In this document: piece by piece, positions 47,162 through 64,000 of the stretch
Numbering within the stretch: the first letter of the stretch is position 1
How the letters are laid out: every line of letters begins with the position of its first letter
NCBI GenBank assembly: GCA_044225365.1
Contig: JBGAIQ010000009.1
Location: 1-64,000 of the forward strand
Direction of reading: 5' to 3'
DNA: 64,000 bases
From: Planctomycetota bacterium
Lineage (GTDB): Bacteria > Planctomycetota > B15-G4 > JADJEK01
Program-made: the position numbers and the translations under genes
The notes under the pieces: generated by a model
The model's database searches: none
Seen by the model: only the letters and a program-made list of their open reading frames with translations
What the model was told of the DNA's origin: nothing

Positions 47162-47202
47162 ACCCCGCGACCGATCAGGACGCGTCGCACCGCACCTCGA
47201 GC

Positions 47203-47916: not shown

Positions 47917-47933
47917 TCGAAATGCCTTTTCTT

Positions 47934-48103: not shown

Positions 48104-48111
48104 TCCGCCAA

Positions 48112-48486
48112 TTAATACTGATGGAACGCGCGAAGGAAGTTGCCATCCGGGTCCGTCGCGATGAACTCGTGAAGGCGGATTCCCTCCTTCGATTCGGGAG
48201 GATGGAGAATGCTCGCACCCCGGCGCGACCATCGATCGTGCAAGTCGTCGACGTCTGCGTTGCTCTCCAGGTTCAGCCAGATGACCACGGGCGGTCGAGT
48301 CCGGAAGTAGTCACGGATCTCGTCACTGGTGAGGAACAGTCGACTTCGTCCCTGAGAGATGCCCGCGATCCCGCCGCCCCCGCGTCCCCAGTCGACGTGG
48401 AATCCCAATTTCTCTTCATAATAATCGAGGGCCCGAGTCAGGTCGGTGACCGGGATCTCCGGCACGGCGCTGGGGAATTCGTTCAC
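48112..48486 (-). CDS. VOC/bleomycin-resistance family protein
   Basis: AVPEIPVTD..YYEEKLGF, EF..TDPDGN; start uncertain. Confidence 0.88.
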   Translation of the reverse strand: MNEFPSAVPEIPVTDLTRALDYYEEKLGFHVDWGRGGGGIAGISQGRSRLFLTSDEIRDYFRTRPPVVIWLNLESNADVDDLHDRWSRRGASILHPPESKEGIRLHEFIATDPDGNFLRAFHQY

Positions 48487-48799
48487 GATTCGGGTCTCCG
48501 AGACGATACCCCGATGGACGACGTCGGAGCGAGTGCACGACCCAGTGGGCGGTGGGCCGACGCTTTCGCAGGGCCCTGTGGACCGCAACGCCGAGCATCG
48601 GATGCGAAGAGTCGATTCTATCGGGGGAAATCCCTATGGACGAGAGAGTTCGATCGCCGGCGAGCATAACCGCGGCGAGTGCGGGCTTCAATCCGAACTC
48701 TCATGGTGGAGCCGCAACCGTCGGGCGACGCAAGCGAACGGACCTTCCGACGCAAGGGCGACCCTTGAACTCCGACCCCCGAAAGATTTTCGAAGTTCG

Positions 48800-48826
48800 T
48801 GTCGATTCCACGGCCGGTGATGGGTC
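48800..48826 (+). promoter_or_regulatory. putative ECF42-type promoter TGTCGA-N17-GGTC
   Basis: Upstream of the DUF1579-yciI-sigma operon; resembles TGTCGA..CGWC. Confidence 0.5.
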
Positions 48827-48883
48827 GTGCGGATAACTTTCGCGGCGGTCCCCATCGCCGCAGTATCCCCCTTCGAGGTGACC

Positions 48884-49453
48884 ATGCTCCTGCGAACACT
48901 CCCATGGCTGTCGGCATTCCTTCTCGCGATCGCCCCGCTTCCCGCCCAAGAGATGCCGAAACCCCAGGCCGAGCACAGGAAGCTCGCCGAATCGGTCGGA
49001 ACCTGGGACGCGACCATCGAAAGCGTCGGCCTCGACGGCAAACCGCACGCTTCGAAAGGGGTCAGCGTCCGCAGACTGGGTCCTGGCGGCTTCTGGGTCC
49101 TCGACGACTTCGAGGGCGAGATGAACGGCGTCCAGTTCACCAGCCATGGCACGCTCGGATACGACCCTCAGAAGAAGGCCTATGTCCAGTCGTGGGTGTC
49201 GATGTCGCCGATGCTGATGGTGTTCAGCGGTGCGTTCGACGACGCCGGCAAGGTCCTCACGATGTCCGGGGACGGCCCCGGCCTGAACGGCGCGACGCTG
49301 CCGATGAAGAACGTCACGACGTGGACGAGCGCCGACTCGATGACGCTCGAGGTCTTCATCGTCCTGCCCGGCGGCCGCGAAATCAGGAACATGACCATTC
49401 ATTACACGCGGCGCGCCGACGAGAAGACCGCGCCCTCCGGCAACAAGAATTGA
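48884..49453 (+). CDS. DUF1579 family exported protein
   Basis: Signal peptide; HRKLA..VGTW, LGYDP.KK.Y..SW. Confidence 0.87.
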   Translation: MLLRTLPWLSAFLLAIAPLPAQEMPKPQAEHRKLAESVGTWDATIESVGLDGKPHASKGVSVRRLGPGGFWVLDDFEGEMNGVQFTSHGTLGYDPQKKAYVQSWVSMSPMLMVFSGAFDDAGKVLTMSGDGPGLNGATLPMKNVTTWTSADSMTLEVFIVLPGGREIRNMTIHYTRRADEKTAPSGNKN

Positions 49454-49494
49454 GATCACGGTCGACCCTCCACCCATCGAAGGAATTGAACGAC

Positions 49495-49929
49495 ATGAGA
49501 TTCATCGTTTTCGGACATGGCAACAAGGACACCGAGGCCGGTGTGGTCCCGAGCACCGAGGAATTCGCCAAGATGGGCAAGTTCGTCGAAGAACTCGTGA
49601 AGGCCGGCGTGTTCGTGGCCGGAGAGGGGCTTCAACCGTCCTCGAAGGGCGCGCGCATCACATTCGAAGGTGGCGGAAAGGTATCGATCAAGAACGGCCC
49701 GTTCACCGAATCGAAGGAGCTCATCGCGGGATTCTCCATCATCCAAGTGAAGTCGCTCGCGGACGCGATCGCCTGGATGAGCCGTACGCCGGCTCCCGAA
49801 GGCTCGTCGCTCGAGATCCGGCAACTCTTCTCCGATGAGGACTTCGCGTCGGCCGATCCGACGGGCGAACTCCGCGAGAAGGACGCGAAGCTCCGCGCGG
49901 AAGCCGATCAGCAACACCGCAAGAGTTGA
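49495..49929 (+). CDS. YciI/DGPF family protein
   Basis: GEGLQPSSKG, NGPFTESKELIAGF; AAGGA RBS. Confidence 0.93.
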   Translation: MRFIVFGHGNKDTEAGVVPSTEEFAKMGKFVEELVKAGVFVAGEGLQPSSKGARITFEGGGKVSIKNGPFTESKELIAGFSIIQVKSLADAIAWMSRTPAPEGSSLEIRQLFSDEDFASADPTGELREKDAKLRAEADQQHRKS

Positions 49930-49947
49930 CGCGGCACGGTTTCGCGC

Positions 49948-51243
49948 ATGAACGAATCGCAGCAGCGAGTCGAAGCGGTCTTTCGTATCGAGTGGGCACG
50001 GCTCGTGGCCGGGCTCGCTCGATTCGTTCGCGGCGACCTCGGAGTCGCCGAGGATCTCGCTCAGGACGCGTTCCTTGCGGCGCTCGAGACATGGCCACGA
50101 GACGGGATCCCGCGCGAACCCGGCGCGTGGCTCATGCAGGTCGCGAAGAACCGAGCGCTGAATCGCGTCGATCGCCGGAAGCGCTGGGAGAAGAAGGAAC
50201 CCGAGATCAAGCGGGACCTCGAAGACCGGCAGGAGCGCGCGATCGGAGCGATCGAGGACGCCGCGGATGACGACATCGGCGACGATCTCCTGCGCCTCAT
50301 CTTCGCGTCCTGTCATCCGTCGCTCAGCGCCGAGAGCCGCGTTGCCTTGACGCTCCGCGTCCTGTGCGGTCTCACGACGGAAGAGATCGCGGCCGCCTTC
50401 TTCATCTCCGAAGCCACGGCCGCGCAGCGCATCGTGCGCGCGAAGAGAACGCTCGCGGAGAACTGCGCGGCATTCGAGATTCCGCGAGGGAAGGAGCGCG
50501 CCGCACGACTCGGCTCCGTGCTCGAGGTGATCTACTTCGTATTCAACGAAGGATACGTCGCCACGGCGGGCGCGAGCTGGATGAGGCCCGCACTGTGCGA
50601 GGACGCCCTTCGCCTCGGCCGCATCCTCGCCGAGCTCATGCCGAACGAAGCCGAAGTCCACGGCCTCGTCGCGCTGATGGAGATCCAGTCGTCCCGCACG
50701 CGTGCGCGTACGCAGCTCGACGGCACACCGATTCCGCTCTTCGAACAGAACCGCGCGCGCTGGGACCACTTCCTCATTCAGCGCGGCCTCGCAGCTCTCG
50801 CGCGCGGAGAGTTGCTCGGCGGTCCGCCGGGTGCGTACCTGATGCAAGCAGGGATCGCAGCTTGTCACGCGCGGGCCCGAACACCCGAAGACACGGACTG
50901 GCGCCGCATCGTCGCGATCTACGATCGACTCGCAGCGACGACGCCTTCGCCCATCGTCGAACTGAATCGCGCGGTCGCGATCTCGTTCGCGGTCGGCCCC
51001 GCGGCGGGACTGATGATCGTCGACGAGCTCACGAAGCTACCGGAGCTCGTCGATTATCATCTCGTGCCGGCAGTGAGAGCCGACTTCCTATCGCGCCTCG
51101 GGCGACGGGAGGAGGCGCGAACCGAGCTCGAACGAGCCGCCCTTCTCACCAAGAACGACCGTGAACGCGAATTGCTGATCGAGCGAGCGAAGAGATTGCG
51201 TGGCGGCGACGGCGTCCAAAACGAGGGTGATTTCCCGTCATGA
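49948..51243 (+). CDS. ECF42-type RNA polymerase sigma factor with C-terminal TPR/DUF6596 extension
   Basis: AEDLAQDA, LRLIFASCHP, QRIVRAK, FNEGY, LNRAVA. Confidence 0.93.
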   Translation: MNESQQRVEAVFRIEWARLVAGLARFVRGDLGVAEDLAQDAFLAALETWPRDGIPREPGAWLMQVAKNRALNRVDRRKRWEKKEPEIKRDLEDRQERAIGAIEDAADDDIGDDLLRLIFASCHPSLSAESRVALTLRVLCGLTTEEIAAAFFISEATAAQRIVRAKRTLAENCAAFEIPRGKERAARLGSVLEVIYFVFNEGYVATAGASWMRPALCEDALRLGRILAELMPNEAEVHGLVALMEIQSSRTRARTQLDGTPIPLFEQNRARWDHFLIQRGLAALARGELLGGPPGAYLMQAGIAACHARARTPEDTDWRRIVAIYDRLAATTPSPIVELNRAVAISFAVGPAAGLMIVDELTKLPELVDYHLVPAVRADFLSRLGRREEARTELERAALLTKNDRERELLIERAKRLRGGDGVQNEGDFPS

Positions 51244-51579
51244 CTCCGGATCGAACATGAACTCGCGCAATTCCTGCGCGCAGCGGCAGGCCGCCGCGAT
51301 CTTGGCCGCCCAGGTAACGGCTTCCTCGCGCGACGGCAGCTCCAGGATCGCATACCCGCCCTCGATGGCCCGCGTCTGCGGGTAGGTGCCCGCCGCAACG
51401 GTTCCATCGCTCGCGATCATGACAGGCGGCACGGACTCGTTGATTCCTCCCCCGAAGATCCACACTCCCGCGGCCTTCGCTTCTCGGACGACTGCATGGG
51501 CGGCGGCCGATACGTTCGGGAGTTCCTCCGCGGGAACCGTCATCGCACCGCTCGGGAACGAGATCAGGTACTTCGTCAT
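51238..51579 (-). CDS. YciI family protein
   Basis: AKAAGVWIFGGG, WAAKIAAACRCAQELREF. Confidence 0.88.
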   Translation of the reverse strand: MTKYLISFPSGAMTVPAEELPNVSAAAHAVVREAKAAGVWIFGGGINESVPPVMIASDGTVAAGTYPQTRAIEGGYAILELPSREEAVTWAAKIAAACRCAQELREFMFDPES

Positions 51580-51586
51580 CTTCAAC

Positions 51587-52069
51587 TCAATTCATTGGCT
51601 GTCGACGTTCGGTATCGGCAGGGGGAAGAGCAACTCGCCCGAGCCGCTCCGCCAGCGCGACGAGGATTCCCTCTGGCCCACGGATGTAGGCCAGGCGATA
51701 CGCGTTCTCGTATTGCATCTCGCCAATGAGTTCTGCCCCGTGCGTCCTCATGTGCGCGACGATCGCGTCGATGTCCTCGACGGCGAACATGAGGCGACGG
51801 ATTCCGAAGGTATTCACCGGAGCGTCGACGGGACCGAATCGGATCGCGTCAGGGGTGTGGAATTTGTCCAATTCGATGCCCTGACCGTCGGGAGTTCGCA
51901 GCATCGCGACCGTGGTCCGAACGTCGTCGAGACCGATCAGCTTTCCTACCGCCGGCCCCTCGACGGTCGTCTCGCCCTCGAAGACGAGGCCCAATTCGAT
52001 GAAGAAGTCCTTGGTGGCTTCGAGATCGTCGACGACGATGAGGACGTTGTCCATTCGCCCGAGCTTCAT
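51587..52069 (-). CDS. VOC family protein
   Basis: MDNVLIVVDDL, YIRGPEGI. Confidence 0.92.
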   Translation of the reverse strand: MKLGRMDNVLIVVDDLEATKDFFIELGLVFEGETTVEGPAVGKLIGLDDVRTTVAMLRTPDGQGIELDKFHTPDAIRFGPVDAPVNTFGIRRLMFAVEDIDAIVAHMRTHGAELIGEMQYENAYRLAYIRGPEGILVALAERLGRVALPPADTERRQPMN

Positions 52070-52102
52070 ATCGGTTCACTCCAAGACTCGTGACGGTGTC
52101 CT

Positions 52103-52486
52103 TCAGTCCGTGACGACAGCCACGCGGGAGACGACGCCGCTGGAATCGAAATCGATCGCCAGCCATTCGTAGTCGATTTGAACAACGCCGCGCTCGGGAC
52201 CAAGGACGTAGATCAAGCCGTGGTCGCGGAACTTGTCCGTCGACGTCGGCACGCCCAGTAGCGAGACTACCTCGCTTCGGGTCATGCCCTTCAGTCGGCC
52301 ACTCGCCGCGAGGCCATCGGCGACGCGATAGCGCGTTCGAAGCGTCGTCCCGTGTTCGGAATCCGCATTCCACCACGCGGCGACGAAGGGCAATGGACAA
52401 CGAAACACAGCCCAGTACGCAGCGACCGACACGACGACTGCACCCACGATCACGAGACCGCGCGCCGAGGGTTTCGCAGAGTGCAT
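52103..52486 (-). CDS. membrane-anchored SmpA/BamE-like hypothetical protein
   Basis: TM segment then GMTRSEVVSLLGVP. Confidence 0.7.
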   Translation of the reverse strand: MHSAKPSARGLVIVGAVVVSVAAYWAVFRCPLPFVAAWWNADSEHGTTLRTRYRVADGLAASGRLKGMTRSEVVSLLGVPTSTDKFRDHGLIYVLGPERGVVQIDYEWLAIDFDSSGVVSRVAVVTD

Positions 52487-52694
52487 ATTCGTGAGGGCCA
52501 AATTCGCCTCCAGAACCGCAACTGTACGGCCCGATCGTGGACATGGCGAGAATCGAGTGCAGGGAACGGGTCGACGTCGATCGCGACCTCTACGTTTTCG
52601 CGGGCTCGACGGCGCTCGAGGCACGATCGTCACTTCGTCACTGCCAGGAAGTCTTGCGGAGCAGCAGCGAGAGACTTGGCGTCCGGGAGACAAA

Positions 52695-53033
52695 TCATCT
52701 CATGGCGAGAACTACGAAGATGCCGATGCCCACGAGCGCCAGCAAGACGGAAACGGCGACGAGCCCTCGGCGGCGTCGATCGCCCTGATAACGGCTCCAA
52801 CCTTCGACATCCAGAAAGTAACGGCCGTCAGCCGTTCGATGCACTGCGCCTCGACTCGTCAAGCTCTCGAGGCGGCGCCTTTCGAGCGATCGATCGAGGG
52901 ACAACGGGATCGCCGACTCCGTGGTGAAGGCGCGGGCCTCCTCGAATCGCTGACGGATCCGCGCCTCGGCCCGCCGCATTGCGGCGACGACGATCAACGG
53001 AACCAGACTCGGAATCAAAGCGGCGGCACTCAT
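52695..53033 (-). CDS. small membrane hypothetical protein
   Basis: GRYFLD and C-terminal TM; AGGAG RBS. Confidence 0.7.
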   Translation of the reverse strand: MSAAALIPSLVPLIVVAAMRRAEARIRQRFEEARAFTTESAIPLSLDRSLERRRLESLTSRGAVHRTADGRYFLDVEGWSRYQGDRRRRGLVAVSVLLALVGIGIFVVLAMR

Positions 53034-53109
53034 TCCACTGCTCCTCGGAGAATTCGATGTCCATGTCCCATCGGATCCACCCGCAGCCAAGCCCTCTTGA
53101 CGCTCAAAT

Positions 53110-53706
53110 CTACGACACTACCGCTACATCCACGAAATTCACGAATTCAGGAACGACTCGCATCAGCCACCCGCGTCCCCGAGCGGAGATGTAGTTGTAG
53201 CGGGTCTCCGTCCCCCGGAAGAAATCGACTCCCGTCCAGCTGGACTCGTTGACCACGATCGAATCGTCTCGACGAATCTCCGTAACAGCCGTGTCGAGCC
53301 GGAGCGCCCACAGAACACCGAGCTGCGACGCAGTATCGGCACAGTGGGGCCTATCCAGTATGTACCCCTCGGGTTCCCCGTCCTCAGGGTACTCCACGGG
53401 TTCCTCCGCGAGGCGATCCCAGAGATGCCAATCCAAACGAACGATTCGAGCTTTTTGGACGGGAACGTAGCCGAGGCCTGTCAATCCAGAACGGTTGAGC
53501 AAGTGACTCAACGCGGCCGTCACGATGACGTCTCCGACACCAGGGAATGAGATCGGAGGAATGAACGGTCCGGTTCGCTCAAGCTGGACCAGAGCTTCCG
53601 AAGAACGCCCGAGGTGCGCCGTCATCCCGTGCACGAGAATATCGCCGTAGTCACCCCACGGAGCGCTTGGCGCCTCGAATCGGAAGAATCTCTCCGTCAT
53701 CGGCAT
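53110..53706 (-). CDS. hypothetical protein (immunity-like)
   Basis: LERTGPFIPP, GEPEGYI, WTGVDFFR. Confidence 0.72.
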   Translation of the reverse strand: MPMTERFFRFEAPSAPWGDYGDILVHGMTAHLGRSSEALVQLERTGPFIPPISFPGVGDVIVTAALSHLLNRSGLTGLGYVPVQKARIVRLDWHLWDRLAEEPVEYPEDGEPEGYILDRPHCADTASQLGVLWALRLDTAVTEIRRDDSIVVNESSWTGVDFFRGTETRYNYISARGRGWLMRVVPEFVNFVDVAVVS

Positions 53707-53885
53707 GCGTATCCTTCACGATGGGACCGTAGGCCTGCAGCTCGCGAAATCCCGCAATCGATTCGAGATCGCACGCGTTGCTCGGGCTTTGGCGCCTGAA
53801 TCCGACCGCGCTGCGAGAACCAATCAGGATCCCACTGCTACCGACGATTGCCGATCGGCGCTCGATCCCGGTACGACTCGATTCG

Positions 53886-54347
53886 CTACGCCCCTTGGTA
53901 AGCCCTCTCGAGGGCGGCGACGTCGAGCTTCACCATCGTCATCATGGCAGCCATCACGGCCTTTACCTTCGTAGGGTTCTTGTCGCCGATCAGTTCCATG
54001 AAGCGCCGCGGGACGATCTGCCACGAGATGCCGAACGGATCCTTGATCCAACCGCACGCGGTCGGCGCGGCGCCAGCCTTGACCAGCTTGTCCCAGTACA
54101 AATCGACTTCGGCCTGGTCCTTGCAGTCGACGTAGAACGAAATGCCTTCCGAGAAGCTGAAGTAGGGCCCGCCGTTGTAACCCATGAAGACCTGGCCACC
54201 CACGACGAACTCAGCGGAGGCGATCGGACCGTCCTTCCCATTGCGAGCCACGCTCCGAATCTGGGAGTCCGGGAAGGTGGCCATGTAGAACTCCATGGCC
54301 GCCTCGAGCTGATCGTTGAACATCAAGAAGGGTGTCACCTTGCCCAT
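53886..54347 (-). CDS. VOC family protein (PhnB-like)
   Basis: VTPFLMF, YNGGP, CGWIKDPFGISWQI. Confidence 0.92.
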   Translation of the reverse strand: MGKVTPFLMFNDQLEAAMEFYMATFPDSQIRSVARNGKDGPIASAEFVVGGQVFMGYNGGPYFSFSEGISFYVDCKDQAEVDLYWDKLVKAGAAPTACGWIKDPFGISWQIVPRRFMELIGDKNPTKVKAVMAAMMTMVKLDVAALERAYQGA

Positions 54348-54418
54348 CGCCCACGGTCCTTTGTTGAAGAAGCATTGGAAGCGGGAACAGCGTACCCGCT
54401 TCGAGACGTTCGAGAGTC

Positions 54419-54465
54419 AGGACTCCTCGACGATTCGATGACTCGATGACTCGATGATTCGACGC
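54419..54465 (+). repeat. 8-bp microsatellite (YTCGAYGA)n, about 4-5 copies
   Basis: ctcgacga ttcgatga ctcgatga ctcgatga ttcgacg. Confidence 0.6.
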
Positions 54466-54487
54466 TCGACGACGGCCACCCGATGGC

Positions 54488-54967
54488 TCACGGAGAAGGC
54501 GGGATGTAGCGAACGAGGACGACGCGACCGTGGTAGCTCGCTCGCGCAACCTCTTCGGCGATGAGTGCCTGGACGGCCGCTTCATCGCCGCCGCCGGTTC
54601 CCGCACCGATCAGCGGCATGCCGACGGAACGAAGCCCGTGTTGATTCGCGAGGCGCAACGCGTTCGCTACCGACTGCCGGATCGAAGTCCGTGACGACCG
54701 CCAGAGCATGTCGATTCCGGCAACGTGATGGATCGCCTTGAACGGTAGTTTGCCGGCACCGGTGAGAACCGCCCCGCCGAGTGGGATCGCTCCATGACGC
54801 GCGAGCTCCCTGAATGGTCCGTACCCCGCTCGTTTCTTGATGGCGGCCGATACGCCCCGAGGAATCAGGAGCCACCACGGGATGATGTTGCGATTCCATG
54901 CGTTGACGATGACATCAACGTCTTGATGGAGAAGATCCCCGTCCACGAGTTCGAGGATTGGCGGCAT
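54488..54967 (-). CDS. macro domain protein
   Basis: GDLL..VDVIVNAWN, GVSAAI, PLIGAGTGG. Confidence 0.92.
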   Translation of the reverse strand: MPPILELVDGDLLHQDVDVIVNAWNRNIIPWWLLIPRGVSAAIKKRAGYGPFRELARHGAIPLGGAVLTGAGKLPFKAIHHVAGIDMLWRSSRTSIRQSVANALRLANQHGLRSVGMPLIGAGTGGGDEAAVQALIAEEVARASYHGRVVLVRYIPPSP

Positions 54968-54976
54968 GCGTCGGTG

Positions 54977-55303
54977 TTATACCTTGGGAGCGGCGTGAGG
55001 ATGAAATTCGACGAGCTCATAAATGAACTCGCTCATACACGATTGACAGTTCGGGCAAACGATTCGACCTCGTGCGAACTCCTGTGCGCGCACACCGCAG
55101 CCGGGACAGTACCATTCACCGCCCCATCGAAACGCAATGTCGGGAAAGGCAATGTCGCGCTCGCTGGGTCGGCGCGATTTCGACACGTAGCAATCGGTCA
55201 ACCGCGACGCCATCACCTTGGACAGTCCCATTCCGCCCGCGACGCAGGTCAGTTCGCCCTGGATATCGACCAGTCGATCGCCGCACCGGGGGCAGAACAG
55301 CAT
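54977..55303 (-). CDS. small Cys-rich zinc-ribbon hypothetical protein
   Basis: CPRCG, CPGCG, CPNC. Confidence 0.7.
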   Translation of the reverse strand: MLFCPRCGDRLVDIQGELTCVAGGMGLSKVMASRLTDCYVSKSRRPSERDIAFPDIAFRWGGEWYCPGCGVRAQEFARGRIVCPNCQSCMSEFIYELVEFHPHAAPKV

Positions 55304-55317
55304 CGAGACGGCTCGAG

Positions 55318-55827
55318 TCAAAGCTCGCTCCTCCATCGCAGGAACTCGACGGCGACCTGAGGCGTCAACTCCAACGCCGCTTCCGCGATGGCGACTTGCC
55401 CCTTCGCAGCGGCAAGTGCGGCCATACAACAGGCCGTGAAATCCGCCTCCCATGGACGAACCGCGGCCGAAGCAATGATCGACGGCAGTCGATTCAGTGC
55501 TGCGAAGTAGGCAGACTCGAGGTCCGTTGGGATCGGCGGCCCGCTCTTGATGCGACAGATCTCGACCCACGCAGGGAATAGAAAGTAGCCATGGTCCGCT
55601 CGATCGGGCGCACGAGACAAAGATCCAATGATATGCGGAACCGCTGCGTACGAACCCGTGTAGACATCTCCTTGGTGCGCGAGCGCGCTCCAGAGACTGA
55701 ACCAAGGCTCCGAATTCCCCGAGGACGATGGAACCTCGGAGATCGCGCCCAACCACCCAGGAACGTCGGACGCATTGCCGTATGCGTGGCGGAGTTGGCC
55801 CCAACGGCGGCTTTTCAACTCGAGCAA
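55318..55827 (-). CDS. hypothetical helical protein
   Basis: WGQLRHAYGNASDVP..LAHQGDVY..SYAAVP. Confidence 0.8.
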   Translation of the reverse strand: MLELKSRRWGQLRHAYGNASDVPGWLGAISEVPSSSGNSEPWFSLWSALAHQGDVYTGSYAAVPHIIGSLSRAPDRADHGYFLFPAWVEICRIKSGPPIPTDLESAYFAALNRLPSIIASAAVRPWEADFTACCMAALAAAKGQVAIAEAALELTPQVAVEFLRWRSEL

Positions 55828-55963
55828 GGTTCACCTCGATGGTTGCATCGCATTGCCGCTACCCGGCGAGCGGCGGTGCGAGTGTACCGTCTCATTCGTC
55901 CGCATCGTCATGGTCCTAATTGCGCGGTCCGCTGAAAGAGTCGGCCGAGCACAAGGACCAAGG

Positions 55964-55987
55964 GTCAGTTACAGCACTCGGATAGGG
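55964..55987 (-). other. degenerate attC-like half site (R''/L'')
   Basis: + strand GTCA GTTACAGC ACTCG GATAGGG, 7 bp after a stop codon. Confidence 0.4.
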
Positions 55988-55994
55988 CAAAGCG

Positions 55995-56528
55995 TCACTT
56001 GCGTGTCCACCGGACCACGTTGAGCAACGCCCTGTGTGGCAGGGAGAATTCGCAAGCATCGAGCGAGTACTCGCCCGGTTCGACGCGCACTAAGAGCGCA
56101 TCACCTATGCACGCGACGTCCCGATCGGGGTCGATCGCCAAATCAGCAAGTACGCAGGCGGCGTGGAAGAGGAGCAACTTGCCCGACGCGGCAGTAATGG
56201 TGCCGAGCGGCGTCCATGAGCAGAGAGGGTCGGTGAGGAGTCGCGGGAGTTCATGAACGACGTCGTCGTTCGCGAAGACGCACCCGACCAAGAAGAGGGG
56301 ACCATCGGGCGCACGAAGCCACCAGGCCGTCCCGAGTCCTTCATCCGCGTCGATCACGACTCCGGCGTTCGTCGCGAGACGCACCAGACCAGCCGGATAA
56401 CCCGCTTCGCATGCGCGGCGATAGTCCGACTCATCGTCGGGTTGCTCCCCTCCCGTCCAGAGGGTGGCGGCGCGAGCGTCGAGCGCGATGAGTGGCCCGC
56501 CGTCATTGGCGAAGACTCGTTCGCTCAC
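55995..56528 (-). CDS. Imm21-like immunity protein
   Basis: GGPLI..W.G..SDYRRAC..VEPGEY; GTGA overlap. Confidence 0.75.
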   Translation of the reverse strand: MSERVFANDGGPLIALDARAATLWTGGEQPDDESDYRRACEAGYPAGLVRLATNAGVVIDADEGLGTAWWLRAPDGPLFLVGCVFANDDVVHELPRLLTDPLCSWTPLGTITAASGKLLLFHAACVLADLAIDPDRDVACIGDALLVRVEPGEYSLDACEFSLPHRALLNVVRWTRK

Positions 56529-57484
56529 GCCCCGATTTCCCCTGTCAGCCGTTGGCCCGAGCAGGCCCCACGTCGCCGTGCCGCGCGCAATAGCAGCACG
56601 ACCGCGACCGATGTCGACGCCATCACCAGCCACGAACTCTCGGGACCGAACATTCCACCGGTCAGCCAGTCCGGCCCGGCATAGCGGCTCTCGAGTGGCG
56701 CCAATTTGCGCCAGTCCTCGATTCCGGAGAGCGGCACGCCCGCGAGGAGTATGGTGAAGTTCCATGCCGCGTGATGCGCGGCCACCGCCCATAGGTTACG
56801 CGTCAGGATGAACACCGCGGCCCAGAGAAGGCCCGTCAAGATCACTGCGATCAACATCGTCACCAGATCGAAAGCCCCGCCTTCCGCAACGTTCTCCACG
56901 TGTTGCAGGGCGAACGCCACCGCCTGCACCACCAGCGCCACCTTCGTTCCCCCGGCTCGCTCCACGACGCGGAACAGCAGACAGCGAAATGTCAGCTCTT
57001 CCAAGGTGGCCGCGATGCAGAGGAAGGCGGCTACGCCGAACAGGGCCGGCGAGAAGCCGCGAAACAGCACCCGTTCGTACACGCCCAGTGCGAACAGGAT
57101 AGCGATCGGCAGCCCTACCATGGCTGCACCGCTCGCTGCGCCGAGCATCAGGTGAATTGGCCGCAGACGCAGCTCGGTCGCTTCGCGCTTCTCATGCCAG
57201 TGAACGAATGCCCAGTAGGACCCCACCGCCGTGAGAAGGATGCCGACGCGCCGGACGACACTGAGCCATTCGGCGCATGGATGAAAGGCTGCGTCGATCA
57301 GCGGCAGCAGGCCCTTTCGGAAGATCAGCATCGAGCCAAGGATCGCCACCCCACCCAGCAGCAGGGAGCCGAGCATACGACCGGCGACTCGGATACGACC
57401 TCGCGCACCGCTTTCCGTTACAAGCCGAACGGTGCCGCTCGTCTTTGCATTCTCGGGGTCGACCCGCGGATCTTGATGCTTCAT
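56525..57484 (-). CDS. CPBP/CAAX (Abi) intramembrane glutamic endopeptidase
   Basis: EELTFR, FALQH, HAAWN, TGGMFGPE. Confidence 0.92.
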   Translation of the reverse strand: MKHQDPRVDPENAKTSGTVRLVTESGARGRIRVAGRMLGSLLLGGVAILGSMLIFRKGLLPLIDAAFHPCAEWLSVVRRVGILLTAVGSYWAFVHWHEKREATELRLRPIHLMLGAASGAAMVGLPIAILFALGVYERVLFRGFSPALFGVAAFLCIAATLEELTFRCLLFRVVERAGGTKVALVVQAVAFALQHVENVAEGGAFDLVTMLIAVILTGLLWAAVFILTRNLWAVAAHHAAWNFTILLAGVPLSGIEDWRKLAPLESRYAGPDWLTGGMFGPESSWLVMASTSVAVVLLLRAARRRGACSGQRLTGEIGA

Positions 57485-57685
57485 GTCGCTGCTCAGATGC
57501 GGTGCGCGGCGAACGGAGCGCGGCACGCGCTCGGCGGCGTCGGCGGTGCGGAGAATATAGGATTCCGTGAACGAGCTCCAGCATGGACGGGCGGATGGGG
57601 ATTCGACTCTGGCCGGACAGCCTCTTGCCCTATATCCCCGATGCCCCGATGCCCTACAGCACACGCTCGGCAGCAGACCGGAGCG

Positions 57686-58252
57686 CTACTTGGATTGGAA
57701 CATCCAACGAATTCCGTACCGGTCGTTCAGTGCGCCGTAAAGGCCGAACGGCTGTTCAACGAGCGGATCCGTGACGTTGGCTCCATCGGAGAGCTTCGTG
57801 AAGGCGGCCTTGATCTCGTCTCTACTTCCACCGCTGAGGTAGAGGCACACCGTATTGCCTTGAACGGGGGTCTCCGTCGGTCGCAGCCAGTCGGAGGCCG
57901 AGATGTCCGCGAGGTCGCTCTTGAGCCTCGCGTTCACGATCCTGCCATGCATCGAGGGCGGGAACATCGACTTCATTGGTGAGTCACCCACGGAAGTCAT
58001 TACCAATTCCCCACCGAGCGCCTCGTGATAGAAGGACATGGCGTCCTTACACGTTCCTGGCAGGAGAAGGTACGGCGTCAAGTGCATGGATTGACTCTCC
58101 AAGTCCGGTTTGTCGGGGGTTGCAGTGGCGACGCCGCTGGCGGTCGTCATCGCGGGCTGCGTCTCGCTCGACGCAGAACAGCTTACGATGACCAGACAAT
58201 TCAGAAGCGCCGCGATTCTGATTGCTCGAAGGCGGATGGACGATAGGGGCAC
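57686..58252 (-). CDS. VOC (PhnB-like) protein, probably with a lipoprotein leader (alternative start 58087)
   Basis: LTPYL..CKDAMSFY, DRYGIRW; in-frame IVSC lipobox. Confidence 0.8.
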   Translation of the reverse strand: MPLSSIRLRAIRIAALLNCLVIVSCSASSETQPAMTTASGVATATPDKPDLESQSMHLTPYLLLPGTCKDAMSFYHEALGGELVMTSVGDSPMKSMFPPSMHGRIVNARLKSDLADISASDWLRPTETPVQGNTVCLYLSGGSRDEIKAAFTKLSDGANVTDPLVEQPFGLYGALNDRYGIRWMFQSK

Positions 58253-58324
58253 AGTTGACTCCGGGGGCGATCGATACGAAACCGTTGTCTGCCGACCACT
58301 CGGCAGCGTAGCACGCGAGGCCGC

Positions 58325-58348
58325 GTCGGCTGCGTGCTGTTGTTTCCT
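58325..58348 (-). other. degenerate attC-like half site
   Basis: + strand GTCG GCTGCGTG CTGTT GTTTCCT. Confidence 0.35.
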
Positions 58349-58367
58349 GGACGTCCGCGATGCGCTT

Positions 58368-58830
58368 CTAGAGAATAGCAACGATGACCTCCCTGTTTCG
58401 CTTTACGGCGACGAATCTGGGCGCGTGTCCTAGCGCGTCACGACTGGAGGCTGCCCCGTGATCGAGTAAGACGACCGCCTTCTCGATCCTACCACTTCGT
58501 ACGGCGTTCTACAGATGCGTAGCGCCCTCCCGCGATCGCACGTCGACCGGCGAAGCCCGCTCGAGAAGCAAGGTCAGGATTGCAAGATCCTGCGACACGA
58601 GTGCCCCATGCAGCGGTGCGGGGCCGCCACTCGCGCGCAGTCGATGGGGACGCCAGCGGCCAAGTGCTCGTCCATCGCAGGCGTGCTCGCGCGCGCGGCT
58701 GTGATATGGAGTATGGAGCGAGTCTTGTAGGGGGCAGTCCGGAATAGGCCGAACGAGATCGAGCGGAGTGGCGGCCGGTAAACCCCGCCGATCGCACGCG
58801 TTCACGTCCGCTCTGTGATCGAGTGCGCTT
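58368..58830 (-). pseudogene. ankyrin-repeat pseudogene
   Basis: LDHRADVNACDRRG, PLHGAL..LLLERASPVD..GATHL*NAVRSG..LLDHGA; internal TAG at 58509 and probable frameshifts. Confidence 0.7.
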
Positions 58831-58884
58831 CTCCTTCGGCATCCGTTCTCGGCCGAGTTCTTCCACGGGCTGTTCGCCGCCTGT

Positions 58885-59154
58885 CTACCCATCCAGCCAT
58901 GGTCCCTTCTCCCACTTGGGCCCTTCCGCCGACACTTCGAGAATGCGAGTGCGAGAGAGTTGGCGCCAGGGTGTCTGACTCGCGTCGTACTCGACGATTT
59001 CATACTTTCGGCCGCAGGTCTTCCACGTCGTGCACGGTGCGGCGTTCGGGGGCTGGTCCCACGGCATCTCGGCGCGCCGGCGAACTTCGGCAAGAGCGTC
59101 GTCGAAGGTGCCGAACTCACCGATCTGTTCAGCGTGAGATTCGTCTTCGATCAC
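58885..59154 (-). CDS. hypothetical protein
   Basis: VIEDESHAE, PWDQPPNAAPCTTWKTCGR; start uncertain. Confidence 0.7.
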   Translation of the reverse strand: MIEDESHAEQIGEFGTFDDALAEVRRRAEMPWDQPPNAAPCTTWKTCGRKYEIVEYDASQTPWRQLSRTRILEVSAEGPKWEKGPWLDG

Positions 59155-59283
59155 GAAAATCGGGACACCTCGCGGGTGCGGCGGGCAACGCGTTGAAAGT
59201 ACCGGCACTCCCCAGTGCGCGCGACTCGGAAAACGCGGTGGACCGCGCTCCGCGCCCATCCGTCCGGTATCCTGCCCGCCATC

Positions 59284-59751
59284 TCAGCCCTGCTCCTCAT
59301 GGATGAGTCTGAACTTCCGATTCAGGTCCACTGTCTTGAACGAGAAATAGAATCCGGAGTATTCCGGGTCGGCGCGATCCGACGCAGGCACGATCCTCTC
59401 CTCCACGGCATCATAATCCACTGCGGAGGCGTAGGTGCCGATGGCTCGCGCTTCTACTGGCTCGGTGTCCACCACGACTCGGTCGCCCTTCCTGAGCCTG
59501 GCCTGCCCACCCCCCGTGAACGGCGCTCCCCACGACGTCATGTAGTGAACGTCCACGTCGTCCAGCGCCTCGTAGATGTCTCCTTTGCGGGGAAAACGCA
59601 TGTCCGCCGGAATAAGGCTGCGCTCGTAATCCCGGGCCCATACCCATTCGGAATGTCCGATCGAGGTCCGCTCGCCGCGCTCCATTTCTGCGCATAGGTC
59701 GTCGATCGTCTTGTTCCAACCGGACGGGGTTGGCGGCACGGAGTTGCTCAT
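59284..59751 (-). CDS. hypothetical protein
   Basis: RFPRKGDIYE, WGAPFTGG; GGAGG RBS. Confidence 0.72.
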   Translation of the reverse strand: MSNSVPPTPSGWNKTIDDLCAEMERGERTSIGHSEWVWARDYERSLIPADMRFPRKGDIYEALDDVDVHYMTSWGAPFTGGGQARLRKGDRVVVDTEPVEARAIGTYASAVDYDAVEERIVPASDRADPEYSGFYFSFKTVDLNRKFRLIHEEQG

Positions 59752-59926
59752 CGAAGCCTTCGCCTCCACGTTGGTCCGCAAGCTCTGAATCGAGAGACAC
59801 CACGCGAAATGGGCCGTCGCTCCCCACATCGAAAGCGCCACGCCCTCGACTCCCTGATGTCGCGTACCGCCGAGCGGTGTGTCGCGTCCGAGAGCATCGG
59901 GTCTCGGGTTGCCTGGATCGCGGCGT

Positions 59927-59950
59927 GTCCGCTCCTTTGGCGAGTTGGCG
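59927..59950 (-). other. degenerate attC-like half site
   Basis: + strand GTCC GCTCCTTT GGCGA GTTGGCG, 7 bp after a stop codon. Confidence 0.45.
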
Positions 59951-59957
59951 GGCCACT

Positions 59958-60278
59958 TTACCAACCCATCACGGCGGGAAGTCGCCGGCCCGCCGCATCG
60001 ATCAGAGTCCAGAGGTCGATGAGAAAGCACAGGGCGAGCATGATTCGGCCGACCGTTGGAACGCGACGCCAGATCACGACAGAAAGCACCGAGGCCAAAG
60101 CCGCGATGCCGATGACCTGCATCACGATCGAACGATAGTCATTGTTTGCGAATGTGATCATGTTGATCGCGAACGCGTACAACGTCATGAGCAAGACGAG
60201 GGTGTAGCCCAGCGCAACCAACGGAAATGTCCTCCTTACCGGCCGGTTCGAAGATGCCGCCCCGAGGAATCCGTTCAA
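59958..60278 (-). CDS. small membrane hypothetical protein
   Basis: 3 TM segments; start uncertain. Confidence 0.6.
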   Translation of the reverse strand: MNGFLGAASSNRPVRRTFPLVALGYTLVLLMTLYAFAINMITFANNDYRSIVMQVIGIAALASVLSVVIWRRVPTVGRIMLALCFLIDLWTLIDAAGRRLPAVMGW

Positions 60279-60319
60279 TGCACACGCGGGCCCCCGAAGG
60301 AGCGCGCCGCATCGGGTTC

Positions 60320-60339
60320 GCTCGAGCGAGAGGTCATGC
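60320..60339 (-). other. attC-like half site containing the upstream stop codon
   Basis: + strand GCTCGAGC GAGAG GTCATGC; TGA stop lies inside R''. Confidence 0.5.
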
Positions 60340-60804
60340 GTCCATCCTCAGTAGGTGTGAAAGGATGCGGTTGAGAGTTTCGCGAAGTTCCATCCGCTCC
60401 TCGTCATCGAACGTCGGCACGAGGTTCGACATCCCGCACGAAAGGTACTCGAGAACGACCGCTCGCTCGTTGGCGGGCCAATGGCGAAATTCGAGGCGAA
60501 GCAATGTCTCCGACAGATGAAGGGGGTACAACGGCGGCTCGTGCCAAGGAGGGCCGAGGATTCGAAGGATACGCGGGAGATAGCGCCGGTAGGCACTGGC
60601 ATTTTCGCAATGGTCGAACGACTCCCACAACAACTTGCGACTGAGATCGTGGTCGAGCGCCTCGAGCGGTATGGAGGCGAGTCGATCGATGTCGTCCTCG
60701 GAGTAACAGTAATTGCAGAATTCCGCACGGATCCGCTGGTAGGCAGCGAACGTCTTGTAGAGCGCACTCGTGTCCGGCGATGGCACTATGAACGGTTCTC
60801 GCAT
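60334..60804 (-). CDS. hypothetical protein
   Basis: YRRYLPRIL, WPANERAVV.EYL. Confidence 0.72.
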   Translation of the reverse strand: MREPFIVPSPDTSALYKTFAAYQRIRAEFCNYCYSEDDIDRLASIPLEALDHDLSRKLLWESFDHCENASAYRRYLPRILRILGPPWHEPPLYPLHLSETLLRLEFRHWPANERAVVLEYLSCGMSNLVPTFDDEERMELRETLNRILSHLLRMDA

Positions 60805-61122
60805 GAGGCACATCGCAGCCGAGGAAATTGGACCTCTTCGACCTCGAACTGGCGCCTGAGGCAGCAGTCTATCGTCCACAGGTCGTCCTGTCGCCGTCAT
60901 CGGACCACGATCGTGTGTCGTTCACGTGGCCCGTCTCTTGAGGTCACATCCTCCCGAGCCGTGTCGATCCAGATCTCGCAACCTTGTCGGGCGAGGCCGG
61001 CTCGTGGTCGATGAGGCGCAGACCCCTGTCGGAACGCACGCAGTCGCGAAGGGTCAGGCAGCCGCAAACAGCGCGTCGGCCAAGGCCCGCGAGGAGGCGT
61101 CCAGGCCGTCATAGGCGCCCAT

Positions 61123-61662
61123 TCACGTTTCGTCGCGCTCGATCCTTCCACCGGACACGACCAAATGCGGCGCGTCTGCTTCGGGGCGAAAGAGCCGCCA
61201 ATCCTCATCGATCGATCCAGACGGGAACACTGCAAGTCTATACCCGCCGTTGAAGGCGATCGTGAATGAGCCGTGCGATTGAATCGCGACCGACTCGACG
61301 AGCAAACCAGTATCGTTCGACATGACTCGCTCCATCCGCAGATCTTGCACGTTACCGTCACGGTCGTAATCCCGGTCGTCGTCCGAGAATCCCTCGGGTT
61401 CATGGAGCGGCCGCAGTAGATCGGCCCGACCCGTGACGATTTCCTTGTCCGTCTCGATTCGCCACGGACACTGAATATGGAGGGCAAAGTCGCACACTGT
61501 TCCGCGCGGCTCGCCCTTTCGAAAGGGAAGTACCGATTCCGCCGCGCGACGGATGGTGCCGAAGTGAAGTACGCGCATGTCGCAAGCCCGTCTTGCGATG
61601 GACAGCTTCAGGCCAACCAACTGCTTCAGCGCTTCGAGGATCTCAGTATCATCCCGATCCAA
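61123..61662 (-). CDS. hypothetical protein
   Basis: ALHIQCPWRI, EDWRLFRP. Confidence 0.8.
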   Translation of the reverse strand: MDRDDTEILEALKQLVGLKLSIARRACDMRVLHFGTIRRAAESVLPFRKGEPRGTVCDFALHIQCPWRIETDKEIVTGRADLLRPLHEPEGFSDDDRDYDRDGNVQDLRMERVMSNDTGLLVESVAIQSHGSFTIAFNGGYRLAVFPSGSIDEDWRLFRPEADAPHLVVSGGRIERDET

Positions 61663-61678
61663 TCATATGTCCTTTGGA

Positions 61679-61847
61679 GAAGAGCGGCTGAGCTGAGCGG
61701 TGCGCGCGCTTGCATCGGAGATCGTCCTTTCTCTTCCGACGCGTCTCACCGCGCGAGGTGGTAGGCCGCGAGCCGCACCCCGCGATTCAGCGTTGGGCAA
61801 GTCGAGTGTAGCTGTATGAGATCATTCGTTGCAACGGCACGTTATCG
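61679..61847 (-). other. degenerate attC site (61679-61798) plus a second half site (61828-61847)
   Basis: + strand GAAGAGC GGCTGA GCTGAGC...GTTGGGC; GTTGCAAC GGCAC GTTATCG with a TAA stop inside R''. Confidence 0.55.
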
Positions 61848-62696
61848 GGCACGCCACCATCCGTCCGCCTCGAAAAGCATCGCGGCAGCCTCCTGCGCGA
61901 CGATCGCGGGCGGCGTGCCGTTGTCGTAGCGCAACCACTTGCCATCTTCGCCCATCGTCGGAGCTCCGAGGCGATGAGACAGATTGGGATGAAGATCGTG
62001 AGTGGTCACCTTGTTGGGCGGAACCGCCTTACCCCAGCCCAATATCACGCCGGTCGGTCCGCATCGACCGATCTCGATCACGAATCCCCCGCCCCACCTA
62101 TCGAATTGTATGGTCAAAAGATCGATGCCGGTCGAAGCGGCACGCCGAAAGTGCGGCAACGATCCTTTGAACCCGCGTGCGCGCAACTGCGGCACGAAGT
62201 GTTCTCGCAAGGCGTCTTTCATCGCGTCATTGCTCATGTCATGTTCTCTCCATCCTCGAGCGGCGAGTTCGCAAGCAAAATCTGCCGGGATACACGAATA
62301 ATGGGGAGCGCGCTGCTCGTCATCCGTCGGCGAAGGCGTAAAGCGCACGAACTCGGCTTTCTCCCGGCGGCGATCCATCCAACGCCAGATTCGGTAGTTC
62401 ACCTGTCCCTTGACGGGCGGCTGCTGAAGTAACTCCGGCCCGGCGAGGTGCGAGAAGTCGTTGTCGCGACGGACTCGAAGGATCCGGTCTTCGCGTTTCG
62501 GGATGATGAAATCCACCGCCGCGTTGAAGCCCTCTCCGATCGCTCGCTCGGCAACAACGGGCGGTGACGACCGCGGACCGTGAAAGACGAATACCCAATG
62601 GCCCCCGAACAAGATCTGCTTGGTCATTACAGCGATCAAGAAGTAGACGCCGTCTTTTCGGACTGCGACAAGGTCACCCGAGCGGATCTGAATCAC
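61842..62696 (-). CDS. hypothetical domain fused in frame to a DUF4304 domain (internal start 62237)
   Basis: VPQLRARGFKGSLPHFRR..QFDRWGGGF. Confidence 0.78.
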   Translation of the reverse strand: MIQIRSGDLVAVRKDGVYFLIAVMTKQILFGGHWVFVFHGPRSSPPVVAERAIGEGFNAAVDFIIPKREDRILRVRRDNDFSHLAGPELLQQPPVKGQVNYRIWRWMDRRREKAEFVRFTPSPTDDEQRAPHYSCIPADFACELAARGWREHDMSNDAMKDALREHFVPQLRARGFKGSLPHFRRAASTGIDLLTIQFDRWGGGFVIEIGRCGPTGVILGWGKAVPPNKVTTHDLHPNLSHRLGAPTMGEDGKWLRYDNGTPPAIVAQEAAAMLFEADGWWRAR

Positions 62697-62726
62697 GGAA
62701 GCACCTGAGTTGCAGTCGACCGGTCT

Positions 62727-62839
62727 TCACAACGGTTGAGCTCGTTCGGGAACGCGGGCTCGCGCCTTCCGGGAAACGTCATTTCAGTCCGAACACGGCT
62801 GTTCATCCATCGCCTGTTCGTTCGAGCGAAGTGTTCGAC
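62727..62839 (-). other. integron attC-like site (113 bp)
   Basis: + (bottom) strand TCACAAC GGTTGA GCTCG...TTCGAGC GAAGT GTTCGAC: intact AAC/GTT cores with 6- and 5-bp spacers. Confidence 0.65.
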
Positions 62840-62922
62840 CGAAACTCACCCGATCGCCACGGACGGCGAACCGATCTGTCGCACTTTCGGATGCAGCGAA
62901 ACATTCGGTCTCGCTTTCACGG

Positions 62923-63294
62923 CTACCAGTACGCTTCGAGGCCATGGCCGCGCGAGGACCAATACTCGCACCACCGTGCCGCGGTGAACAGAATATGAGC
63001 TCTTGATTCTTCACTGCCTTCCTCGAACTCTGGGCGTGCCACGCGCTCCACGTGAGCAACTCCCGCCTTTGCGGAGAACGACGTTGCCCTTGCACGTAGT
63101 TCATGACCCAGTGCCTCTAGGCCTGGTGCGAGACAACTCTCGTAGCATTTCTCCAGGGTTGCCATTCCGATGATGTCCTCGCAGTCATGCAGAAACTGCG
63201 CGCGAAAACTGGGTCTTCCGGGAATCGTGTGGGTTTGAGGCTCAAAATCGCTTGGTTCGGCTGACAGCGTGACGTGAACCCGTTCCACGCTCAC
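62923..63294 (-). CDS. hypothetical protein
   Basis: SFRAQFL.DC, AARWCEYWSSRGHGLEAYW. Confidence 0.78.
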   Translation of the reverse strand: MSVERVHVTLSAEPSDFEPQTHTIPGRPSFRAQFLHDCEDIIGMATLEKCYESCLAPGLEALGHELRARATSFSAKAGVAHVERVARPEFEEGSEESRAHILFTAARWCEYWSSRGHGLEAYW

Positions 63295-63410
63295 TCAACC
63301 TCAGACTCCGAAGCTGAGAGGGTGCACCGCCCTCTGGCCCCACCTCCGTCGTCGTCGGTCCTTCGCTCGCGTTCGCTCGCTCGGTCCGCGACCGACGCCG
63401 ACGGCGATGG

Positions 63411-64000
63411 GGCTGCGAGGGCTCGGGTGGCGTACTGGGCCGCAGTTCCCGAGCCTGTCCAGATCGCGTCGAGTCGCTACCGTTCGGGGGATGAACGACA
63501 ATGAACTCTATGCGCGGATCCTGGGACTTGAGACTCCGTGGCGAGTGACCAAGGTGGACCTCGCCTTGAAGAAGGGCGAAGTGTTGGTGGTCGTCGAGAT
63601 GGATCCGTCGGGGGCGCGATTGTGCGCCGAGTGCGGAGCCGCAAGCCCTGGCTACGACACGTTGGTTCGGCGCTGGCGTCACCTCGACACCTGCCAGTAC
63701 CGGACGATCCTTGAGGCGCAGGTGCCGCGCACGAATTGCGCGACGCACGGCGTGAAACAGGTCCGCACTCCGTGGGCGGAAGCGGGCTCGCGATTCACGG
63801 CGCTGTTCGAAGCGATGGTGATCGCGTGGCTGAAGCAGGCGAGTGCTGCGGGCGTCGCGAAGGAGATGCACCTGAGTTGGGACGAGGTCGACGGGATACA
63901 AGGACGCGCGGTGAAGCGAGGGCTTGAGCGGCGTCACGTGAGGTATCCCAAGCGCCTCGGCGTCGACGAAACGTCGTTTCAGAAGCGGCACGAGTATGTG
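63411..64000 (+). mobile_element. ISL3 insertion sequence (left part; left end approximate)
   Basis: Transposase ORF; GGCT..GGGTGG motif ~80 bp upstream resembles an ISL3 left end. Confidence 0.75.
63491..64000 (+). CDS. ISL3 family transposase (partial)
   Basis: Manual translation MNDNELYARILGLETPWRV..CAECG..RRWRHLDTCQY..PWA..SRFTALFE..LGVDETSFQKRHEY. Confidence 0.93.
   Translation, partial: MNDNELYARILGLETPWRVTKVDLALKKGEVLVVVEMDPSGARLCAECGAASPGYDTLVRRWRHLDTCQYRTILEAQVPRTNCATHGVKQVRTPWAEAGSRFTALFEAMVIAWLKQASAAGVAKEMHLSWDEVDGIQGRAVKRGLERRHVRYPKRLGVDETSFQKRHEYV

Follow-up and report, generated by a model that had tools for sequence, protein, structure and literature searches.

A probable fossil integron array beside a truncated integrase gene in a Planctomycetota bacterium

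The stretch analysed here, referred to as the window, comprises the first 64,000 nucleotides (nt) of a contig (JBGAIQ010000009.1, hereafter C71; contig and window coordinates are identical) in the genome assembly GCA_044225365.1 of a Planctomycetota bacterium. Between positions 55960 and 63410 it carries a run of small minus-strand open reading frames (ORFs) separated by spacers of 20-230 nt, which a first-pass annotation, made from the letters alone, had read as a cryptic integron cassette array with attC-like recombination sites between the genes. The run of small co-oriented genes with long spacers is confirmed. Our results suggest that this interval probably represents a sedentary chromosomal integron's oldest part, the one farthest from the integrase, and that the array is most likely a fossil rather than a working one. 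That the run belongs to the distal part of a chromosomal integron, in what is probably a planctomycete, had been proposed by the annotation and is supported by a remnant of an integrase gene (intI), by five attC sites beyond the window and by three cassette-related ORFs; the nearest named relative of one of these ORFs lies in a metagenome-assembled genome of the Pirellulaceae. As a whole, the first-pass annotation is partly supported: its inference was largely right and most of its evidence was not.

It had advised a search for intI to the right of position 64000, and it is there that the remnant was found. A TIGR02249 profile search of the whole genome (6.53 Mb in 103 contigs) returned seven matches, none of which exceeded the 265-bit cut-off. 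The best of them, at 70966-71451 on the minus strand, reached 224.7 bits and stays under the cut-off because only model positions 154-315 are present. The feature is as follows:

70954-71559, minus: 5'-truncated intI (TIGR02249, tblastn, PDB 2A3V), 7 kb to the right of the window

The remnant has the same orientation as the small ORFs, matches residues 195-358 of a relative's IntI at 62% identity (tblastn), and aligns with residues 158-320 of the 320 residues of the Vibrio cholerae integron integrase (PDB 2A3V) at an E-value of 4e-45, whereas XerC/XerD-type chains match it far more weakly (E ~1e-14). The N-terminal part, ~190 residues as counted on the relative's open frame, is absent in every frame of 70000-73500, and we take it that the first catalytic arginine of tyrosine recombinases would fall in this missing part. 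Judged by these comparisons, 70954-71559 is a predicted remnant of an integron-type tyrosine recombinase gene and not an intact intI. An independently assembled contig from run X2 crosses the truncation point into the adjoining imuA gene; therefore, the truncation is not an artefact of a single assembly. No further integron integrase was detectable with TIGR02249 in this assembly, which is 94% complete.

In Rfam, the window had no matches at gathering scores, the six weak matches in 50000-64000 were unrelated, and none came from an attC family. We therefore built our own covariance models, R1 and R2, which include no sequence from the present genome. A repeat search downstream of intI in two related genomes (G036 and G034) revealed regular repeat families every ~300-900 nt, and 15 of these sites were aligned as the source of R1. 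The aligned structure has nine pairs in its R stem, followed by a 2 x 6 asymmetric internal loop, and its long L stem carries two bulged bases on the 5' arm; 86.0% of the structure is paired, compared with 77.5% in shuffles (0 of 500 reach the observed value) and 28-44% when the partners are slid. R2 contains 45 sites from 16 loci of other genomes, gathered with R1, and in its alignment, which was fitted to the model, 87.4% of the cells pair and double changes occur at 23 of 28 pairs. Since R2 recovers arrays on which it was not trained, including more than 35 sites in a locus (L054) from another family of the phylum, it is not narrowly tuned.

With filters off, R2 identified five minus-strand attC sites in 63000-73000, all of them outside the window, and R1 found the same sites. 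The one nearest to the intI remnant is 2.3 kb away and all five lie within 5 kb of it. Together with a 5' half-site and the ORFs between them, they are:

68680-70578, minus: three-gene TIR / TIR-like / SLATT unit (Pfam, PADLOC), the unit nearest to intI
68608-68675, minus: attC, site A (R2 74.3 bits, E 1.7e-17)
68133-68573, minus: cassette ORF
67993-68121, minus: attC (R2 19.5 bits, E 0.0026)
67654-67765, minus: attC (R2 38.0 bits, E 4.3e-8)
67216-67692, minus: cassette ORF, DUF4279 (Pfam)
67127-67223, minus: attC (R2 41.6 bits, E 4.9e-9)
66886-67179, minus: cassette ORF, Imm33-like (Pfam)
66189-66671, minus: cassette ORF
66129-66196, minus: attC (R2 19.5 bits, E 0.0027)
65553-66113, minus: cassette ORF, UPF0167 (Pfam)
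65521-65548, minus: attC 5' half-site (5'-half matrix 14.3 bits, rank 11)

A whole-genome application of R2, in which 150 of ~12,593 first-look candidates were scored, yielded two matches, both in this array; this result does not prove that other arrays are absent. A strict hand-written attC scan, with 68 matches genome-wide, found only site A in the contig and was set aside as too rigid for degenerate sites. A position matrix for the 3' half was not useful either: it missed even site A, because the 3' spacer of that site is 3 nt shorter.

The 5'-half matrix, built from relatives only, was informative. Six of its best positions (ranks 1, 2, 3, 11, 20 and 47 of the 13.06 million positions scored) lie at 65521-68675, all on the minus strand, and a seventh, at rank 43 with 11.2 bits, is located inside the interval at 61822-61849. 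The seven best 5' half-sites of the contig are thus all on the minus strand within 61822-68675. Across the 13.06 million positions, 67 exceed 10 bits, which corresponds to ~0.02-0.04 expected by chance on one strand of such an interval. Of the 11 copies of the motif AAC-N4-6-GYTGCARCG in the 6.53-Mb genome, five fall within 61827-68669, all on the minus strand.

The features of the interval and its right-hand border are:

63211-64750 (63211..64000 in the window), plus: insertion sequence (IS) of the ISL3 family, 1540 bp (Pfam DDE_Tnp_ISL3 213.9 bits; empty-site contig)
62923-63210, minus: 3' part of an IS-split 226-aa gene, whose 5' part is at 64751-65151, beyond the window
61842-62696, minus: two-gene fusion, 284 aa; residues 1-153 are a cassette gene elsewhere and residues 154-284 a DUF4304 gene
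61822-61849, minus: attC relic, R''-spacer-L'' half only
61123-61662, minus: ORF of no known family, 179 aa, probable former cassette
60334-60900, 59958-60278, 59284-59751 and 58885-59259, minus: co-oriented ORFs, no direct cassette evidence
57686-58381, minus: VOC/PhnB-like (Pfam), probable former cassette
57660-57685, minus: R'' relic TGCTGCCGAGC
56525-57664, minus: CPBP protease (Pfam), no direct cassette evidence
55995-56528, minus: Imm21 (Pfam), GTG start overlapping the protease stop, no direct cassette evidence

Inside 55960-63410, the recombination-site signal consists of two minus-strand traces, one half-site and one R'' trace, which are too few for a cluster. The half-site at 61822-61849 reads CCCGATAAC-GTGCC-GTTGCAACG on the minus strand and fits the R''-spacer-L'' consensus of the attC sites of related genomes; its R'' box is CGATAAC and includes the TAA that ends ORF 61842-62696. 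No L'/R' half matching it was found, and the full model gives no minus-strand match there at E<=10. The second trace, at 57660-57685, follows immediately after the stop of ORF 57686-58381 and is homologous to the R'' of an attC site in a relative (G020), with AAC changed to AGC (alignment A3); it has no model match and no fold signal (z +1.06). A complete hairpin (R''-L''...L'-R') was not detectable by the covariance model within the interval.

Most of the sites that the first-pass annotation had listed have no support. Of nine, only the one at 61828 survives, as a half-site; those at 55964, 58325, 59183, 59927 and 60320 show a loose resemblance only, and that at 63300 falls inside the ISL3 element. 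The two supposedly near-complete sites, at 62727-62839 and 61679-61798, are overlapped by the top R2 matches of 44000-64000, which lie on the plus strand: one at 62786-62828 with 13.0 bits (E 0.25), the other at 61609-61716 with 12.1 bits (E 0.43). The layout that the spacers were said to match (AAC-6-GCTNAGC and GCTYRAGC-5-GTT) has no exact match in 50000-71000, compared with 15 and 20 genome-wide. Two stop codons had been placed inside R''; one is real, within 61822-61849, and the others that we found (67217 and 66196) lie beyond the window. A cluster of attC sites without an integron integrase (CALIN), which the annotation had offered as one possibility, requires at least two attC sites with no intI nearby, and the interval holds no complete site, while the five real ones lie close to the intI remnant.

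Further evidence comes from homologues of the ORFs themselves. ORF 57686-58381 shares 60% identity across 177 aa with the G020 integron's first cassette (locus L037, 2771-3301), where intI (3755-4696) is followed by this cassette and then by an attC site (2652-2754), and the homology runs past the stop codon into the R'' box. The single relative of ORF 61123-61662 in the genome collection (L068, 55% identity; a metagenome-assembled Pirellulaceae genome) starts 39 nt after an attC match of 21.2 bits (E 0.0049); the attC there is on the upstream side only. ORF 61842-62696, which carries Pfam DUF4304 on residues 167-272, retrieved 13 loci in a metagenome scan, nine matching the N-terminal half and four the C-terminal half. 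The former match residues 1 to ~153-213 only, with 51-68% identity and open frames of 136-223 aa (some of these frames are cut by contig ends or extend upstream of the likely start), and the latter match residues 154-281 only. With R2, a same-strand attC abutting the N-half ORF was found in six of the nine loci (L070, L071, L072, L073, L079 and L081), with the stop codon within R'' in L070-L073, and none in L069, L074 and L080. Taken together, homologues of three window ORFs occur elsewhere as attC-bounded single ORFs, which marks the three as probable former gene cassettes.

Since the two halves have separate homologues, ORF 61842-62696 is an in-frame fusion of a cassette gene and the next gene. 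At the fusion, as judged from the stand-alone homologues, the first gene lost its last few codons and its attC, and the second gene lost its leader. Contigs from runs X1 and X2 cover the fusion unbroken. In a search of the whole phylum with this ORF, 2 of 250 other genomes contained homologues, partial ones only.

The right end of the interval has been altered by the ISL3 element. In a contig from run X2, 63202 is followed by 64751, with 1548 nt left out and eight letters shared, and an 8-bp target duplication, CGAAAACT, is present at 63203-63210 and 64751-64758; the terminal repeats are imperfect. A first attempt to set the boundaries by inverted and direct repeats failed, and the ends were set by this empty-site contig. 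The element is single-copy in the assembly (blastn) and polymorphic in the sampled population; one allele in run X2 lacks it. When the element is removed, ORFs 64645-65151 and 62923-63294 make up a single 226-aa gene, with its ATG at 65151 and its stop at 62923-62925. Contigs from runs X3 and X4 match only short or diverged parts of the stretch.

The arrangement of the locus recurs in its relatives. Among 61 related genomes, 25 exceed the integron-integrase cut-off, and all 42 genomes of the window's order were sampled for intI. In that order, 12 of 12 intI-adjacent arrays (L009, L015/L044, L016, L027, L030, L032-L034, L036-L038 and L043) have the co-oriented layout, with the array downstream of intI, whereas four arrays in three genomes of other families (L040, L050, L052 and L054) are divergent, as in classical integrons. 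The co-oriented layout can therefore be regarded as the rule in this planctomycete order.

An integron integrase inserts circular cassettes at attI and excises them by recombining folded attC hairpins. Read on the minus strand, the locus begins with the intI remnant, followed by a 375-nt spacer, which presumably holds attI, and by the cassettes, which extend leftward into the window. The integrase gene has lost its N-terminal ~190 codons. As intI is truncated and no other integrase is detectable, the cassettes would have been frozen in place and their attC sites left free to decay. Sites close to intI can still be recognised, and farther out the traces dwindle to 5' half-sites at 65.5 and 61.8 kb and to an R'' trace at 57.68 kb. 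Comparison with the stand-alone homologues shows that one attC was deleted outright, with two genes fused into ORF 61842-62696, and the ISL3 element has recently landed in another cassette gene. The genes of 55960-63410 would then be former cassettes that are now ordinary fixed chromosomal genes. In this scheme, three points are suggested by the pattern rather than seen: that loss of IntI caused the decay of the attC sites, that distance from intI reflects the age of a cassette, and that the remaining ORFs of the interval were also cassettes.

A number of observations weigh against this account. Links to cassettes elsewhere were found for only three of the ~12 ORFs of the interval, 477 kb of the relatives' loci gave no match for 28 of 29 array ORFs, and none of the four loci with a DUF4304 half has an attC by R2. 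The sole half-site within the interval scores only 11.2 bits, and R2 with filters off gave 23 matches at E<=10 in 44000-64000, none of them above noise (R1 behaved in the same way); the first-pass annotation had itself named such an outcome as speaking against an array. Its proposed folding check fared no better: nine window spacers fold no better than shuffles as DNA (z from -0.80 to +1.37), compared with z-scores of -4.72, -3.06, -3.01, +0.19 and -0.90 for five true attC sites used as controls. The spacers share no repeat, a search of 52000-64000 having given short chance pairs only. Moreover, R2 was trained on one phylum and foreign or atypical attC sites could escape it, the decay-with-distance picture rests on one array, and the left end of the array is not fixed by the gene-order comparison within the family.

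The integron remnant could instead end at ~61.8 or 65.5 kb, in which case most of 55960-61100 would be an ordinary accessory island made up of small genes of immunity and stress type (Imm21, CPBP protease, VOC, macro domain), adjacent to the array but never put together by an integrase. To the left of 61822 there is indeed no attC signal save the 11-nt R'' trace, most ORFs there have no homologue in a cassette context, and Imm21, Imm33 and DUF4304-type ORFs are also found, as co-oriented small ORFs, in the orphan immunity-gene clusters of polymorphic toxin systems. We nevertheless regard such an island as unlikely, given that ORF 57686-58381, deep inside it, corresponds to the first cassette of a relative's integron with homology into the R'' box, and that the proven array passes into this stretch with no break in strand, gene size or spacer pattern. 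Unlike orphan immunity clusters, the locus has attC sites, an intI remnant and attC-flanked cassette homologues, and no toxin gene was seen among the ORFs scanned with Pfam. At the opposite extreme, the array might be live, in effect a CALIN, with attC sites too unlike those of the sampled planctomycetes for the model, the matrix and the folding to register. Cury 2016 describes attC as defined by structure more than by sequence, the weak plus-strand matches overlap the two best sites of the first-pass annotation, and in the spacer 62720-62845, GCTCG and CGAGC form a 5-bp pair whose distances from AAC and GTT are attC-like. Against this stand the poor E-values of those matches and their location on the strand opposite to the ORFs, the spacer folds, the R boxes of the 62.8-kb candidate, which pair only at AAC/GTT, the lack of exact matches to the annotation's motifs, the strict structural scan with its single hit at site A, and the lack of a detectable functional integrase in the genome. 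A live array is thus very improbable, and a decayed integron remains the reading we prefer.

Large chromosomal arrays of the Vibrio superintegron type are similar in that they consist of tens of small co-oriented ORFs, mostly of unknown function, on the downstream side of one integrase, but their attC sites are highly uniform. The attC sites described here range from 68 to 129 nt, their scores differ as well, and erosion has affected the distal ones. A close match in layout is the Treponema denticola type, in which intI is likewise co-oriented with the cassettes and the array lies downstream of intI; the name 'inverted integrase group' is used in PMC10500605, and the co-oriented Treponema structure is described in PMC3607928. 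The present locus differs in that intI is 5'-truncated, attC decays along the array and the part in the window lacks complete attC sites. According to PMC2426708, integron integrases of Planctomycetes were already known in 2007-2008. A CALIN with a nearby intI pseudogene (Cury 2016) is also similar, combining an attC cluster with an intI remnant, and an ISL3 element is present here as well; according to PMC4889954, intI pseudogenes lie close to 15 of 279 CALINs, and 23% of complete integrons contain insertion sequences. The present case differs in that the five sites lie outside the interval, which itself has fewer than two detectable sites and would not be called as a CALIN. A limited literature search turned up no publication dealing with eroded attC sites or fused cassettes in Planctomycetes, which does not exclude that one exists.

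Tentatively, and as a possibility rather than a probability, the locus might be viewed as a time series of cassette 'domestication' after integrase loss, with attC passing from intact sites to half-sites, to traces and to nothing, and with one attC deletion welding a cassette gene in frame to its DUF4304 neighbour to give a novel ORF of two domains. Should this hold generally, fixed accessory genes and gene fusions in Planctomycetes would have a source that has been overlooked, namely dead integrons, and many 'ordinary' islands of small co-oriented genes would be former arrays that are invisible to attC finders. Here, a program that looks for attC and intI would call no more than a short integron (66-71.5 kb) and miss ~10 kb or more of former cassettes, which were revealed only by homology to cassettes elsewhere. 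The element is of a known kind and leaves the understanding of integrons unchanged; its value is that of a worked example of integron death, by integrase truncation, IS insertion, attC erosion and cassette fusion.

The 375-nt spacer between the intI remnant and the array has features of its own. The attI of this lineage is not known, and a sigma-70 scan near intI gave one match against 1.3 expected, with none at the right place; in the promoter and terminator scan, matches were no more frequent than in shuffles. The spacer contains a repeated GTTATCCAGACC motif, and ~130 nt of the sequence between intI and the first cassette (~70748-70875, minus) recur with ~65-70% identity at ~65163-65288, just upstream of the 226-aa gene at 65151, with an exact 14-mer, GAGTTATCCAGACC, common to both. 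A third copy of the repeat core, nearer to intI, forms a perfect palindrome at ~70887-70912. This motif was not found in the relatives' loci, and the repeat could represent a second attI, a promoter/operator or a duplication.

On the other side of the intI remnant, and pointing away from it, is an imuA-imuB-dnaE2 operon for an error-prone polymerase (71854-77440). In G034, which belongs to another family, dnaE2 is located directly upstream of an intact intI on the same strand (L033, 5552-8842). A linkage of dnaE2/imu and intI was seen in only two of the intI loci compared; it is either old, with an inversion cutting intI here, or a coincidence. At the imuB loci of same-family genomes, no gene of the window is conserved beside imuA and no gene order is shared beyond it.

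The three-gene unit next to the spacer (68680-70578; L008 8680-10578) has overlapping ORFs and ends at the strongest attC. Two of its three products are TIR-related, one ThsB-like (PADLOC 207.3 bits) and a second TIR-like (46.6 bits), and the third is a two-transmembrane SLATT_3+SLATT_1 protein. From these domains, the unit looks like a Thoeris-like anti-phage module carried as a single cassette, with a putative SLATT effector replacing ThsA. Farther out, the attC sites at 67993-68121 and 67654-67765 are only ~230 nt apart with no convincing ORF found between them, and 67765-67993 may be an ORF-less cassette.

Within the window, the families assigned include DUF4304, VOC/PhnB-like, CPBP protease and Imm21, and several ORFs have no known family. 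G+C content, which also favours the integron reading, is ~0.62 across 53-64 kb compared with 0.651 genome-wide; GC3-based gene calling was discarded as too noisy. The genes for the CPBP-family (Rce1-like) membrane protease and Imm21 (55995-57664, minus) share the letters GTGA, stop on start, and appear to be one translationally coupled unit. To their left, a stand-alone macro-domain protein is encoded at 54488-54967 on the minus strand (Pfam 68.7 bits), with a weak DarG-like PADLOC match (24.3 bits); no DarT-like partner was noticed.

Class-1-type attC sites have a protruding G. In the attC sites of the present lineage (alignments A1 and A2; 67127-67223 and 68608-68675), the bulged bases lie on the R''-L'' arm, as in classical sites, and are G and A on the coding strand, that is, C and T on the bottom strand. 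The R-L internal loop measures 2 x 6 nt, and three additional pairs covary between two genomes. For Treponema attC sites, a protruding G is described in PMC3607928. Finally, the summed contig depth peaks over attC 67127-67223 in four of four runs (66945-67378; L008 6945-7378), and contig variants there skip 39-43 nt of its variable centre; therefore, other cassettes in those metagenomes commonly carry close relatives of this attC.

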